Below are positions 10,939 through 17,000 of a stretch of 64,000 bases of DNA, piece after piece. The notes beneath the pieces are model-generated. The model saw only the letters and a program-made list of their open reading frames with translations, did not search any database and was not told the origin of the DNA. The position numbers were made by a program, and so were the translations under genes. Source of the stretch: Giardia intestinalis (Eukaryota); the NCBI GenBank assembly GCA_000002435.2, contig CM018792.1; one strand, written 5' to 3'. The stretch's first letter is position 1; every line of letters starts with the position of its first letter.

Positions 10939-11868
10939 ATGGGCAGAAGATCTCATTCCGACCGCAACCTGTTAAAGCATAAAAGGAGAGCGGAGAAGGA
11001 TTCAAATGGCAACGGCTTAGAACACGATGCTATTACTATTGATGCTGCCATCGAGAAGCCTTCAATCCGAGCTGTATGCAAAGAAATGGCACCAGCTGAT
11101 TCAGAATCCACTTTGAAATACGCTCTAGCAGAGTTGATACGCAAACCAGCTTCTCAGGAAGGCTGTGCTAATTCGTCTTTCACGTCTATTACTCAGAGCA
11201 AATTTGCGAGGACTTTGACATTGGAACATGAGACTACCAGGGCCTCAGTAAAGAGGGAGCAGCGGGAGTGCCTTGGCTACGTCAAGTGCACTTATAGTCG
11301 ACGGAATGTGGCGGCAATAACTGCAGACGATCTGACGGCAGCAGACCCCATGTTAAATGTCATTCACATTTTACACCATAACTGTGTACCAGTGCCAGTT
11401 CACTGGCGGCTACGCAATGGCAGATTCTTGTCCGAGCATGTGCCCAAGTACACAGTCGCTTCGAAACATCAAAACGTGTACCAGATACCTCTATTTGCAG
11501 CAAAGCTCTATAACCCAAAGGATATCTATGCGAGATTCCAGAGGTCGAGCAGAGAAAGTAAGCAGTACAGTGCTTCACAGACTGTTGTCATAACCTATGA
11601 GCATCGTACCAATTGGGTAACTATACCGCTTCTCTCACATGGAGACCTTTACCAAGAAGCGCGCAGCAGTATAATTGGTCGTTCCGCATACTCTCCAGGC
11701 ACCATGTCTGATGAGTTACGTGAAGCATTGAACATGCAGCCAAATGATCCACCTCCGTGGCTAGCCCGTCAAAGCCTATTGCTTAAACCTTCATGGCTCC
11801 AGGATATCTCCATCGCAGCGCTGAACGTATCTGCTCCTAAGCAGGAGACACCTCTGCTGCGCTTCTGA
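10939..11868 (+). CDS. splicing factor 3b subunit 2 (SF3b145/Cus1)-like protein, DUF382 + PSP domains
   Basis: DLTAADPMLNVIHILHHNCVPVPVHW matches the DUF382 core DVTAADPKLLVHLKATRNTVPVPRHW. TIPLLSHGDLYQE matches LTIHGDLYYEGKE. GTMSDELREALNMQPNDPPPWL matches the PSP-domain signature GDLSDELRxALGM...PPPWL of SF3B2/Cus1. Confidence 0.7.
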   Translation: MGRRSHSDRNLLKHKRRAEKDSNGNGLEHDAITIDAAIEKPSIRAVCKEMAPADSESTLKYALAELIRKPASQEGCANSSFTSITQSKFARTLTLEHETTRASVKREQRECLGYVKCTYSRRNVAAITADDLTAADPMLNVIHILHHNCVPVPVHWRLRNGRFLSEHVPKYTVASKHQNVYQIPLFAAKLYNPKDIYARFQRSSRESKQYSASQTVVITYEHRTNWVTIPLLSHGDLYQEARSSIIGRSAYSPGTMSDELREALNMQPNDPPPWLARQSLLLKPSWLQDISIAALNVSAPKQETPLLRF

Positions 11869-11933: not shown

Positions 11934-12182
11934 ATGAAACGGGATGAAGTGCGAAAGAAACTCATGGAGCTTGATATTCGAAAGAAAGAGATCGAGGCGG
12001 AAGCAAAAAGCTATCAGGAGGTGCTGAACGCATACCCGAAGGTGCTGGACGATGAAGGCTTTCCCCTTCCTAACGTCCCCCATGAGCTTGTCGCCAATGC
12101 TAAGCATAAGCTTGTATGTCTCAAGACAGATTACAAGAATATAATGAACGAGATAGAAAGTTATCTGCCCTATGCGTTTTAG
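11934..12182 (+). CDS. Nas2/PSMD9 N-terminal-domain-like mini-protein (82 aa), no PDZ domain
   Basis: VRKKLMELDIRKKEIEAEAKSYQEVLNAYPKVLDDEGFPLPNVPHELVANAKHKLVCLKTDYKNIMNEIESYL aligns with human PSMD9 [25 protein letters not shown]...[42 protein letters not shown]. The ORF ends after this helical domain. Confidence 0.5.
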   Translation: MKRDEVRKKLMELDIRKKEIEAEAKSYQEVLNAYPKVLDDEGFPLPNVPHELVANAKHKLVCLKTDYKNIMNEIESYLPYAF

Positions 12183-12206
12183 CGTGATATGATGCTATCA
12201 CATAAA

Positions 12207-12212
12207 AGTAAA
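12207..12212 (+). terminator. putative poly(A) signal AGTAAA, 25 nt after the 11934-12182 stop and 8 nt before the next gene's ATG
   Basis: AAAAGTAAATCAAAAAATG: signal and downstream initiator overlap. Confidence 0.45.
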
Positions 12213-12219
12213 TCAAAAA

Positions 12220-13872
12220 ATGGCTGTACTTTCTCTTCTAATTGGTCTAGGTTGCGTGGCTCTAACATGGCTTCTTTTCGTCTCTGTCTTGCGGCGGAGC
12301 TCTCCAAGTACACTTCTGCGCCTCAAAGAGTCTGGAGTTAGTGTCACACATAATGGGTTTTCTAAAGCATTTTATTTCAAGTCTATACCTCAGTATAATC
12401 TAACGTTAAGCGTATCACCAGCCAGTGAGAGTGCCTCCAAAAAGAAAGCACGTGCTCTCCAAATCATAAGCACATTGTCAGTCGTACTGGGGACTGCATT
12501 CAGTATTCTGAGCATTGCTGTTATCATCTGGTCCATTTGGTCGTCCTTCAACAAAAAAGAAGTTCCCTACACCCTCACAGTACCGCACTCTAACGTGCTG
12601 ACAGTGTTCCTTTGCCTCTGCAGCGCCGTCCTCTTTCATGAGATGGGGCATCTGCTACTTATGTACAGCACCAAGACACCCATTCGTGGGTTTGAGGTTG
12701 GGATACGGTACTTCATTCCCTTCGTTACAATCTTTGGGGCTTTAAATTCACCTGGATCCGCTTCTGACTCTCAAAAGGAAACCATTAACGCTATAGGCGG
12801 TATTCTCGGAAACATATCCACCTCGTTAATAGCTCTCGCTATAGCATATCTTGTTTCTTACCGAACACGCACCTCAGTTTCTTCCACCTCCCTGTTTGTT
12901 TACTTGGGAGAGGACCCCCACGACATTAGTCCCTATTCACTAGTTCAGTCCGTAGGAAGTACACCAATACACAGCCCAATGGATCTAGATCGTGCCCTCC
13001 GGACGATTGAGGCGCAGTATACCGGAGATTATGGAGCTATTGAGCTCTTGGTGGACAACAAAAACACCTTCTCGTTGGCCGCCGGAATCAGGCAATCGGT
13101 TCAGGCGCAGCTAGCATACCAGAAGAGTGGTGCCCTTGCAGGTGTGGCTGATCTCTGGCCACCATACTCATCATCACAAAGCCTAGGAGGCATACAGATA
13201 CCGTACACAGCTTTGGAAAATATGGAGCCACTACAATGCCACATCCCACAAGATGGGGTCCCAATACTTCTATCCCACTATCACGTGCTTTCAGCGTCTC
13301 ACCTGCTTGTTCTATCTCCCTATGTTATGAACACTTCTCTCCTTTCAACCTTTCTCTCTAGCGACCAGTCCAGCCTCTGTCATTACAGCACAGCAGACTA
13401 TGTCTGCATGTATCCATATTTCTTCGCCAATGACACCCTTAGCGCCAGTGGAAACGGCGTCTATGCACGTTCGATAGTTAATGGTGTTCAGCAAATGATA
13501 CCACTACCAGTTTCTGGCAGTCACCAGACTCTCACCCTCGAAGGGTGGAAAAAGCAATATCAGAGGCAGTTTGTCGCTGTTCCAACGTCTCTAGTGGGCA
13601 CAGCTTCTGATGCCAAAGAGTTGGAGGTAGCGGTTCAACGGATACGAAGAACAAACAAGTTCACCTTTATCGTCCAGATCTTCACAGAAACGAGTGCCGG
13701 CATGGCTATCTTAGCATCACTGGGATTTCCGTTCGGTAGCGACGGCCAACACCTTCTGCGCAACGTCCTACGGAATAAGTCGACTCAAGCAATCGTCCAG
13801 TCAGCCTTTTGGGCGTCCTCGCTGACGCTGTGTTGTTTTCTGGGGCTGAGCACAATATACTCCCTATTCTAA
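12220..13872 (+). CDS. site-2 protease-like (peptidase M50) intramembrane zinc metalloprotease
   Basis: Hydrophobic N-terminus and several TM segments. LFHEMGHLLLMYSTKTPIRGFEVGIRYFIPFVTIFGAL matches the M50 signature HExGHxx...G...(F/I)xPF..(F/I)G (compare RseP [24 protein letters not shown]). The C-terminal ASLGFPFGSDGQHLL resembles the M50 NxxPxxxLDGG motif. Confidence 0.6.
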   Translation: MAVLSLLIGLGCVALTWLLFVSVLRRSSPSTLLRLKESGVSVTHNGFSKAFYFKSIPQYNLTLSVSPASESASKKKARALQIISTLSVVLGTAFSILSIAVIIWSIWSSFNKKEVPYTLTVPHSNVLTVFLCLCSAVLFHEMGHLLLMYSTKTPIRGFEVGIRYFIPFVTIFGALNSPGSASDSQKETINAIGGILGNISTSLIALAIAYLVSYRTRTSVSSTSLFVYLGEDPHDISPYSLVQSVGSTPIHSPMDLDRALRTIEAQYTGDYGAIELLVDNKNTFSLAAGIRQSVQAQLAYQKSGALAGVADLWPPYSSSQSLGGIQIPYTALENMEPLQCHIPQDGVPILLSHYHVLSASHLLVLSPYVMNTSLLSTFLSSDQSSLCHYSTADYVCMYPYFFANDTLSASGNGVYARSIVNGVQQMIPLPVSGSHQTLTLEGWKKQYQRQFVAVPTSLVGTASDAKELEVAVQRIRRTNKFTFIVQIFTETSAGMAILASLGFPFGSDGQHLLRNVLRNKSTQAIVQSAFWASSLTLCCFLGLSTIYSLF

Positions 13873-14021
13873 TGTTTGCTGGCTACGCTTTGACCTTCAG
13901 TTGAAGTATTGAAATGTAACTAACAGGCACTTGTAAGTGCCTTCATACGGTATATGTACTACATAGATGGCAACCACTGTGACAGAGTAGGACAAGTAAA
14001 TCTTGGATAAATCAAAAAAGG

Positions 14022-17000
14022 ATGAAGCTGCGATATTATCGCCACGTCCGAGACTTCGATTTCCGGATACCAGAGACTATATTTGACAAGGATCCAGTAA
14101 GCCTTATCTTTCTCATTATTAATTTGGTGGATTTCTGTCTCTTTTATGTGTTGCGTGAGCTTCATCCTGATTCCCCGCTTCTAATGTATTTTCTATGGAT
14201 TCCGTTACAAATTCTTATCACCTACGATGCAATCAACTTTACTATCCAGTGCACTCGGTATCACATACGGTTTTTGACGTGGTATTATATTATGTGGACT
14301 GTCTCTAGGATTTCCGCTGTGGTTTCAGTTATAGTGGTGCCCTTCATTCTCAGGGCTGGGGTAAGCCAATTATACCACTATCACATGGGCAGTTTCAGCA
14401 TATATCGAGGGCTGCTTCCCAGTCTCGGTCCAATCTTTCGCATGAAGGAGAGTCATACCCGTTGGGTTAAGGAATATTATATCCCCGACTTTGTCAAGTC
14501 CATAATCCGCATATCGTACTCAGTCGTTGCCTTCATATTTTGCTATGCTGGGCTTTTCCAAATTTTCAACTTTCCCCTTGGGACGTTCTCAATAAGCACA
14601 ATTGATGCAGTTTATTATACTATGGTTAGCATTGCCAGCATAGGCTACGGTGACATCTATCCGACAAATAACTTTTCAAAGGTGGTGCTCTGTCTCTACA
14701 TAATAGCCTTCCTGGGAAACCTGCCTATCTTTGTTAGGAATAGCACAGAAGAGCTGCACGTTACTCGGCTACTACACAAACTAAGGTCAGCCTGCAAAAA
14801 TGGAATTACTATTATTTCCGATCAAAACATATCGTTTGTCTTTCTCCTCAGGCTTATCTTGCCGGCAAATATTCACATTGGCCTGATAGACGTCACTGAA
14901 GACGAGAATCCTCACTTACGCAACACCTGCTACAGCTTCAATAACGTAGGCTACATCAATCTGAACACGTGCGGGGAGAATACAGCAAGGCGGGCGCTAG
15001 ACTATGAATTCCTGGTCAACAGCCTGGTGGGTAGAAGCAGAAAGATTGTCGTGCTGTCTCCAGTGTCATCTTCAACCATGGCGGACAGCACCTGTCTGGC
15101 TATGGCACTCAATTGTGGCAGAGTTGCAAAAGTGGATACACAGTTAATTGTGATGACCCGGGAGGGTGGACGTTCCCAGACACTGCAGTCACACATTGGC
15201 GCCTACCACGAGAATTGCTACATAGTGGATATGACCGACTTTAGTGCAAAGATACTTGTTTTGGCGATACTGTTCCCGGGGTTTGCTACCTTCTTCTTCA
15301 ACATCATGCTCCCCCCTCATGTCTCTTTACATAAACTTGAGAATCGAACGGCAGATTTCTATAATGAAAGAGTAAGGAGAGTGAGAATCCGCACGCGTCT
15401 CCTTTTGGCAAACGCACGAGCAAAGGGTAAGAAGCATCAAAGTGGTAGACGATCCAAGCTATACTGCAAGTCCAGATCAGACGATGTTTTCCCGTCCAGC
15501 TCTCTACCTGGCATGCAGGGGCTTGAGTTCAATAATAGTGCACAGAATACGCTCGATGCAAACCAGCACATGTACTCTTCTCATGTGCGCTTCACGGATC
15601 TGAAAAAGCGATATACCATGGACCTGTCTAGCAGCTCGACCATGTCCTTGTACAAGGAGTACTATCCATGGGGAGTCAATAATAAAGATAGTGATGTGCA
15701 GGATAAAAAGTCGTATGTTCCGAAGGCGTACTCAATAGCTGCACTTAGAGACAAACCAACTGGCCTTGTGAAGAGCCCCTCGTTGCCAGAAATTCCATAT
15801 GACAACAACGCAATCGCTATAGCAGTCTCGACACCCAATCTTGGCACCGTTCTCCCCGTGCCCATCACCCTGGAGACCATGCAAACAGCCTGTGCTGACT
15901 ATTTCGGTAAAGAGAGCCAGCAACAGAGCACATCTTTCTCTAATGTGTCGTCTGTTCCATCTATTGATAATATAGCTGCCCTAGAGACTCGCTACTCGAG
16001 GCGTTCCTTTCAAGCAGGGCGGACAAAGGAGCCCCGTTTACAATTCGAAGCAGCTCTAACCCAGTTTATATCGAAAATAACCAAGTTCCCCACTCTTGAG
16101 TTTCTACGATCCACCATTGACATTCCCGTTTTTGATTTCCATCCCGGCCTGGTGCACGACAATAAGTGGCGTGCATGGCTTTCCTTTGAGCAAAACAAGC
16201 AGGTACACCTATTTCTTCCTGCCATGGTCGCTGCCACTGAGCCGCTGGACACAAGCACGACATTTAGCTCAAAATCCAATAACTATCCATCTAAATCAAA
16301 GTACTTGCGCAAGAGCTCTATCGACCTGGAAACTATGGTGCGCAATTGTGGGGCGGATACCACTAGTGACCGCTTCCGACCCCTTGCTGTAATAATTAAC
16401 AAGCGTGTTCTTCAGCGTAAAGAAGATGATTGCCTCAACTATGAGGATACATTTGTCAAGAAGTGGCGCTTCACTAATCAGCTTTTTAAGTTCGACATTT
16501 GCTGCAATCTGCACGAAGGACTCACGATGGACAAGCCTGATCTGCTGGGCATTACTAAGCGGTTTCCGATTTATGAAGTCAAGCACAACAATGAGCAAAT
16601 ATGGAGCAAAACTTCTAAGATGACATCCGCAAGTAAGGCCATATACTCTCTCAAGCAGCTATCTGCACACCTCCCCATTGCTGAGCAACCCAGTGAGTTT
16701 CTAGGCGATATGTCCAGTATGCTATCATTGTCAAAGATTGACGAGCTGTCCATGCAAAGTGCCCAGACCAATATCCTTTCACCGCCTACGTTACTGAATA
16801 GAGTCTCTCTGAACGCCATGTCACGGGCTTACTCTCCTGATGCAGAGTCTTCAAAACAAATACCACCTATAGACAATTCACTTGAACAAGCGATAGCTCC
16901 GCCAGAAAACCCTGTGAACCCAGTATCTAATACCACAGGCCTGAAAAGCATTCTGGGGAAGAAAATCTCAACCCTAATGAGTGAGTACATTGGGGTACTG

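Follow-up and report, generated by a model that had tools for sequence, protein, structure and literature searches.

A conserved Giardia protein that most likely represents a Nas2/PSMD9 orthologue reduced to its N-terminal helical hairpin

The 64-kb window of DNA analysed here, from Giardia intestinalis WB (assemblage A), carries on its forward strand two closely spaced genes, namely, a short gene for a homologue of the N-terminal domain of Nas2/PSMD9, a chaperone of proteasome assembly, and, directly downstream, a gene for a site-2 protease (S2P) homologue of the M50 family. The first, GL50803_6647 (XP_001709487), occupies positions 11934-12182 and encodes 82 residues; the second, GL50803_17127 (XP_001709488), occupies positions 12220-13872 and encodes 550 residues. 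Both are open reading frames (ORFs) whose translations match the deposited proteins exactly, and the identity of the second is additionally given by its Pfam match. The small protein is labelled "hypothetical protein" in GenBank and is referred to below as mini-Nas2. As judged from sequence comparisons, it is most likely the Giardia orthologue of Nas2 (p27, PSMD9), cut down to the N-terminal helical hairpin through loss of both the linker and the PDZ domain that follow it in canonical members of the family.

The family assignment draws on several lines of comparison that converge on the same domain. Against the Pfam profile Nas2_N (PF18265), the protein scores 52.4 bits (E=5.2e-14), well above the gathering threshold of 23.2, with residues 11-79 aligned to positions 2-75 of the 79 in the profile. 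A search of the PDB with the single sequence returned nothing meaningful. A profile built exclusively from sequences of the Giardia clade returned the N-domain of yeast Nas2 (3WHJ/3WHL) as its top match (E=0.0011), pairing Giardia residues 9-82 with yeast residues 32-110; full-length yeast Nas2 was matched as well, and the next, unrelated entry followed at E=0.3. When the family profile was extended to 27 sequences, full-length yeast Nas2 was recovered at E=1.6e-46. A coiled-coil artefact behind the Nas2_N match was considered and ruled out, given that the clade profile picked 3WHJ/3WHL first and that the non-helical loop motif D-x-E-G-F/Y-P is retained, in the Giardia version as D-D-E-G-F-P.

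The 27-sequence alignment with canonical PSMD9 proteins defines where the Giardia protein begins and ends. It aligns from the first helix of the family domain onwards and stops where the second ends, so that homology to yeast Nas2 and human PSMD9 (p27, Bridge-1), the Rpt5 chaperone of the 19S base, extends over its whole length; 20 of the 27 sequences run on, by way of a linker, into a PDZ domain whose last residues are GLLGC. Canonical members accordingly measure about 200-250 residues against the 82 found here. The first ~25 residues of yeast Nas2 are also absent from the Giardia protein, as they are from many canonical PSMD9s. Among positions where all or at least 90% of the 27 sequences agree, Giardia included, the protein carries L13, E21, L31, D39, G42, P44, D66, I74 and E75, and its second helix conforms to the family pattern L-x-x-D ... 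I-E. An AlphaFold2 model of the protein is a helix-loop-helix with a predicted local distance difference test (pLDDT) score of 93, in which the helices comprise residues 3-33 and 50-81 and the chain ends at LPYAF-stop. The departures from the canonical form are concentrated in and around the loop: the inter-helix segment of the Giardia clade is some 5-8 residues shorter and lacks G-x-P-G-V/M-x-G, N-V-P replaces D-I/V-D, and V-A-N-A-K stands in place of V-R-x-A-R. The initial annotation of this stretch, which had described an N-domain-only Nas2/PSMD9 protein terminating ahead of the PDZ domain and had named the Pfam Nas2_N profile as a check, is thus borne out on both counts: Pfam, the alignment and the clade profile agree on the domain, and the ORF closes at the second long helix, before the linker and PDZ would begin.

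The pattern of substitution shows mini-Nas2 to be a genuine gene on which purifying selection acts strongly. Across assemblages A, B and E, the mini-Nas2 proteins are 91-95% identical and all end in LPYAF-stop, compared with 64-88% identity for the S2P in the same assemblages; between assemblages A and B the two values are 95% and 74%. Expressed as differences, 5% of mini-Nas2 residues have changed between A and B, as opposed to 26-31% in the two flanking genes. Nei-Gojobori estimates for the same pair of assemblages place the non-synonymous divergence (dN) of mini-Nas2 at 0.023, with a proportion of synonymous differences (pS) of 0.77, which is saturated; the corresponding figures are 0.196 and 0.68 for the upstream gene, which encodes a PSP-domain protein, and 0.164 and 0.69 for the S2P. 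The orthologue in Giardia muris (TNJ27162) is likewise 82 residues long, is 61% identical and ends in the same LPYAF-stop. The S2P of G. muris (L005, 6274-7863) is 25% identical to that of G. intestinalis, so that this protease evolves very fast between Giardia species. Purifying selection, together with a length and C-terminus kept in G. muris and two further relatives, favours a PDZ-less Nas2 in use by Giardia over a truncated remnant, the two alternatives between which the initial annotation had left the choice.

The short form is found in further relatives too. When 1.84 billion cluster representatives were searched exhaustively with phmmer, 45 matches emerged; the top three are 61%, 51% and 44% identical to the query and 89, 87 and 89 residues long. 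The 87-residue version comes from the sequence designated L004 (read set SRR31929897) and the 89-residue versions from L006-L008 (SRR14944320-25). Remoter matches are mostly canonical PSMD9 proteins of about 200-250 residues with a PDZ domain; the others are shorter sequences and a few long repetitive proteins that are apparently unrelated. Several short matches have the canonical loop and may represent fragmentary gene models. Additional members of the clade were sought by a word-indexed profile search, which returned canonical-type fragments only. L006 has a G+C content of 69% and very short intergenic spacers, and AGTAAAC, a Giardia-type poly(A) signal, lies 16 nt past its mini-Nas2 stop (L006, 863-890), which suggests that its source is another compact-genome relative of Giardia.

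The missing domain was sought directly with a hidden Markov model (HMM) of the PSMD9 PDZ. In six frames it found no match anywhere in the 64-kb window, the rest of the genome being outside the search, and none in the 4-6 kb surrounding the mini-Nas2 orthologues from assemblage B, G. muris, L004 and L006. A Pfam scan of ten further ORFs of the window revealed no proteasome or PDZ domains. As read from these sequences, absence of the PDZ is a trait of the clade.

What such a protein could do is best approached from its canonical relatives. Nas2/PSMD9 is described as clamping Rpt5 with two parts: the helical domain holds the small AAA+ subdomain, and the PDZ holds the C-terminal tail. In yeast, helices alpha3 and alpha4 of Nas2 supply most of the interface to Rpt5's small AAA+ subdomain, sandwich the HbYX tail of Rpt5 and temporarily take the place of the Rpt1 N-terminal domain in the N-ring (PMC13252414); earlier work gives the PDZ the task of binding the final three Rpt5 residues (PMC10452565). 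The Giardia protein retains the part that makes the main interface and would thus be a Nas2 with one hand only, protecting Rpt5 up to ring closure. In the scheme we propose, mini-Nas2 would take up freshly synthesised Rpt5, in the form of an Rpt5-Rpt4 module, through the small AAA+ subdomain; it would cover the HbYX tail and fill the slot of the Rpt1 N-terminal domain in the nascent ATPase ring, so holding the bound subunit off premature docking onto the 20S core or joining with Rpt1; and it would be expelled once the ATPase ring closes. Mini-Nas2 would lack the other hold, that of the PDZ on the final three residues of Rpt5. A minimal Nas2 also fits the known reductions of the Giardia proteasome, which is without Rpn12, Rpn13 and Sem1 and has an Rpn10 whose VWA domain is truncated yet functional (PMC4352536; bioRxiv 10.1101/2024.09.18.613619). 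For the reading as a whole, that is, a conserved, PDZ-less and loop-shortened Nas2 orthologue together with the role on Rpt5 that we infer for the helical hairpin alone, we put the probability at roughly 0.7.

Several observations weigh against this reading. Deletion of the last 3-5 residues of yeast Rpt5, the presumed PDZ-binding element, strongly reduces Nas2 binding (PMC9922823), and the N-domain alone may therefore bind weakly. The loop that touches the Rpt5 N-terminal domain in yeast is the very element that is shortened and altered in Giardia. Fold searches with the predicted model returned generic helical hairpins, such as prefoldin and designed coiled coils, and did not single out Nas2, so the structure adds nothing beyond the sequence. 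The search for a PDZ partner encoded elsewhere, or for another PSMD9 of full length, covered less than the whole Giardia genome, and no paper was found on Giardia Nas2/PSMD9 or on these locus tags.

The best-surviving alternative, although an unlikely one, is that the protein, a Nas2_N homologue, has given up proteasome assembly for some other role, as a small adaptor of the coiled-coil type. There is precedent in the N-domain of human PSMD9: according to a review (PMC13043653), it recognises motifs of the EXKK type in many proteins outside the proteasome and is enough on its own to rescue a lipid-droplet phenotype, and loss of the PDZ combined with an altered loop could mean changed partners. 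Set against these considerations, the residues conserved across the family are kept, and all six Rpt subunits are kept in Giardia, so that the client Rpt5 is present. An old and essential partner, moreover, would be the simplest reason for the protein's strong conservation.

Somewhat less probable again is a split Nas2, in which the PDZ half resides elsewhere as a separate gene or a trans-spliced exon and the two halves act together. Giardia has a few trans-spliced genes, the PDZ search reached the window and the orthologous loci as opposed to the whole genome, and inside the mini-Nas2 ORF, at 12114-12119, there is a GTATGT hexamer that presumably matches the Giardia 5' splice-site consensus. 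The corresponding letters are GCATGC in assemblage B and GCGTGC in G. muris; as the hexamer is unconserved, it is taken as a chance occurrence, and an intron or trans-splicing event starting from it was rejected. The position of the stop codon is kept across the clade, no PSMD9-type PDZ coding segment was found in the 64-kb window or near any orthologue, and neither the exhaustive phmmer nor the word-indexed profile search gave another Giardia-like Nas2_N protein.

The downstream gene raises the question of whether its position is meaningful. GL50803_17127 is, on the strength of its profile match and motifs, an M50 site-2 protease homologue, as the initial annotation had held: it scores 33.4 bits against Pfam Peptidase_M50 (PF02163; gathering threshold 27.2) and carries both hallmarks of the family. 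The zinc-binding motif HEMGH (residues 140-144; 12637-12651, forward strand) sits inside a hydrophobic segment, and its residues H140, E141, G143 and H144 are invariant in five Giardia assemblage sequences and kept in G. muris and L004. FPFGSDG (residues 503-509; 13726-13746, forward strand) is the counterpart of the second M50 motif, PxxxxDG, which provides the Asp that is the third zinc ligand. Transmembrane-like segments comprise residues 1-26, 79-110, 121-148 and 191-213. The M50 protein of L004 aligns to the Pfam profile over positions 3-200 of 221, spanning both motifs, and the G. muris orthologue is named "Endopeptidase S2P" in UniProt. The literature yielded nothing relevant on a Giardia site-2 protease.

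With M50 proteases that bear a lumenal or periplasmic PDZ, such as human MBTPS2, Escherichia coli RseP and Aquifex aeolicus aq_1964, the Giardia S2P shares the HExxH in a membrane helix, the distal PxxxxDG and a loop of about 270 residues; unlike them, it has no PDZ detectable by sequence in that loop. Pfam gave no match on residues 224-500 even at E values up to 10, the PSMD9-PDZ HMM scored at most 0.8 bits, and hhalign returned a probability of 0.2% (residues 214-303). The initial annotation had implied a connection between the two genes by way of a PDZ in the S2P, and that suggestion finds no support from these three methods. An AlphaFold model of the S2P, computed from a five-sequence alignment, has a pLDDT of 33 and is unusable for judging a PDZ fold. 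Residues 238-287 loosely resemble the second half of a PDZ by eye; this resemblance is without statistical support and is not claimed. The sole PDB match of the S2P profile is to the proteasome chaperone PAC4/PSMG4 (5wtq, 8qyj; residues 451-499, window positions 13570-13716) at E=0.82. As it is sub-threshold, is not accompanied by a match to Pfam PAC4 and overlaps the helix ahead of FPFGSDG, it is regarded as chance.

A likeness between the PDZ domains of the two families does exist at large. A PSMD9 PDZ profile run against the PDB strongly matched the PDZs of bacterial S2Ps (aq_1964 at E ~6e-14; RseP at ~1e-9), and also HtrA/DegP and GRASP55/65, in keeping with the published observation that Nas2 and GRASP55 have the same circular permutation in their PDZs (PMC3976055). 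This is a resemblance between types of PDZ and not evidence on the Giardia locus.

The surroundings of the two genes supply a plainer account of their proximity. Upstream, at 10939-11868, lies the gene for the PSP-domain protein (PF04046, E=8e-15) with a weak DUF382 match, a domain pair that we take to be typical of the splicing factor SF3b145; the gene is divergent, with 69% identity between assemblages A and B. Downstream, a gene starting at 14022 encodes a 1416-residue Ion_trans_2 channel-like protein. The block, consisting of an ankyrin protein, the PSP-domain protein, mini-Nas2, the S2P and the Ion_trans_2 channel, is collinear in G. intestinalis A and B and in G. muris, and within it mini-Nas2 and the S2P lie on the same strand with a gap of 24-37 nt. 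Given synteny of the whole block, the adjacency in these two species needs no special explanation.

In assemblage A this gap is a forward-strand spacer of 37 nt (12183-12219), and the two ORFs that it separates are in different frames (11934 mod 3 = 0; 12220 mod 3 = 1). It contains AGTAAAT at 12207-12213, a putative poly(A) signal of the small gene that fits the Giardia consensus AGTRAAY, and an A-rich TCAAAAA that abuts the S2P ATG. The distance and change of frame in the initial annotation are confirmed by measurement, and a motif scan located the AGTAAA hexamer where it had been placed, at 12207-12212, with 7 nt intervening and the ATG thus falling 8 nt after it. The hexamer reads GGTAAA in assemblage B and is absent as such in G. 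muris, and hence is not strictly conserved. The next junction is built alike, with AGTAAAT at 13995, 123 nt past the S2P stop and 20 nt ahead of the ATG at 14022. In assemblage B, the gene models (L003, 4001-4018 and 4282-4296) begin at upstream ATGs that add the N-terminal extensions MPTQEK- to mini-Nas2 and MVNQK- to the S2P, neither of which is present in assemblages A and E or in G. muris. The extended start of the S2P would leave just 14 nt after the Nas2 stop, and the internal Met is probably the true start.

Outside these species the arrangement loosens. In L004 (6001-9644), the 87-residue Nas2_N gene and a 624-residue M50 gene lie on the same strand 1.5 kb apart, separated by a 193-residue gene and a tRNA-intron endonuclease, and no other gene has a homologue in the window; the arrangement could be residual micro-synteny or weak linkage. 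For a third lineage, the flanks of the Nas2_N gene were covered over 5 kb downstream in L006 and 1.3 kb upstream in L007, and neither contains an M50 gene.

It is against this background that a functional pairing of mini-Nas2 and the S2P has to be weighed, either as a co-regulated proteostasis unit or with a PDZ-like region of the S2P replacing the PDZ lost from Nas2. The adjacency on one strand in G. intestinalis A and B and in G. muris speaks for it, as do the nearness of Nas2_N and M50 genes in L004, where no other neighbour is shared with the window, the common permuted class of PSMD9 and S2P PDZs, and the odd sub-threshold match to PAC4. Each of these meets an objection. Block synteny covers the adjacency within Giardia, two unrelated genes intervene in L004 and the M50 gene is missing from the searched flanks in the other relative; the S2P has no PDZ detectable by sequence; the PAC4 match lacks significance and coincides in part with a transmembrane helix; and the following junction, too, has a poly(A) signal close against the next ATG. 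The established topology of the two families also keeps them apart, as S2P loops face the lumen or the exterior and Nas2 works in the cytosol and nucleus. We consider such a pairing highly improbable, and no better odds can be given to the broader proposition that the closeness of Nas2_N and M50 genes in G. intestinalis, G. muris and L004 reflects functional or regulatory coupling, linking signalling by intramembrane proteolysis with assembly of the proteasome base. The S2P gene appears to be an unrelated, incidental neighbour in a conserved, tightly packed gene block.

Least probable of all is that the ORF is a pseudogene fragment, the decaying remnant of a once full-length PSMD9: for all that it covers just the first domain of a canonical two-domain protein and is annotated as hypothetical, this view is effectively refuted by the selection pattern, in that non-synonymous divergence between assemblages A and B lies 7-8 times below that of both flanking genes at saturated synonymous sites, the start, length and LPYAF-stop are kept in G. 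muris at 61% identity against 25% for the S2P next door, and versions of 87-89 residues are kept in two further relatives.

The PDZ-less Nas2 orthologue favoured here is a domain-architecture variant of a well-known chaperone, occurring in an organism whose machinery is known to be reduced, and not a new kind of system; two of its orthologues, from P15 and G. muris, already bear the UniProt name "Nas2 N-terminal domain-containing protein". A possible parallel is found in another parasite, Babesia microti, whose annotated "PSMD9" (XP_012648556; L009, 4001-4297) has 98 residues and likewise consists of Nas2_N only, with no PSMD9-type PDZ coding segment within 4 kb. It differs from the Giardia protein, to which it is 43% identical, in keeping the canonical longer loop and D-I-D. 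As the canonical loop is kept there, the loss of the PDZ in B. microti, for which the annotated gene model is the basis, may, if real, be a second and independent one. Within Giardia itself, a close analogy is Rpn10, a shortened proteasome component which still works with its truncated VWA domain; Rpn10, as well as the absent Rpn12, Rpn13 and Sem1, are subunits of the mature particle, whereas mini-Nas2 is a predicted assembly chaperone.

The relative weight of the helical domain and the PDZ in Nas2 function is still debated. A conserved Nas2 that consists of the hairpin only would argue that the hairpin is the indispensable core of the chaperone and, if the present reading is true, that the PDZ is dispensable for Rpt5 chaperoning. 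This fits the 2026 cryo-electron microscopy picture, in which the helices give most of the contacts and cover the HbYX tail. As such, mini-Nas2 would offer a minimal construct for binding and complementation work. For the biology of Giardia, it would add an assembly factor to the list of proteasome reductions that so far comprises the absence of Rpn12, Rpn13 and Sem1 and the truncation of Rpn10, and it has been suggested that the parasite might be controlled by way of the points in which its proteasome assembly differs from that of the host.

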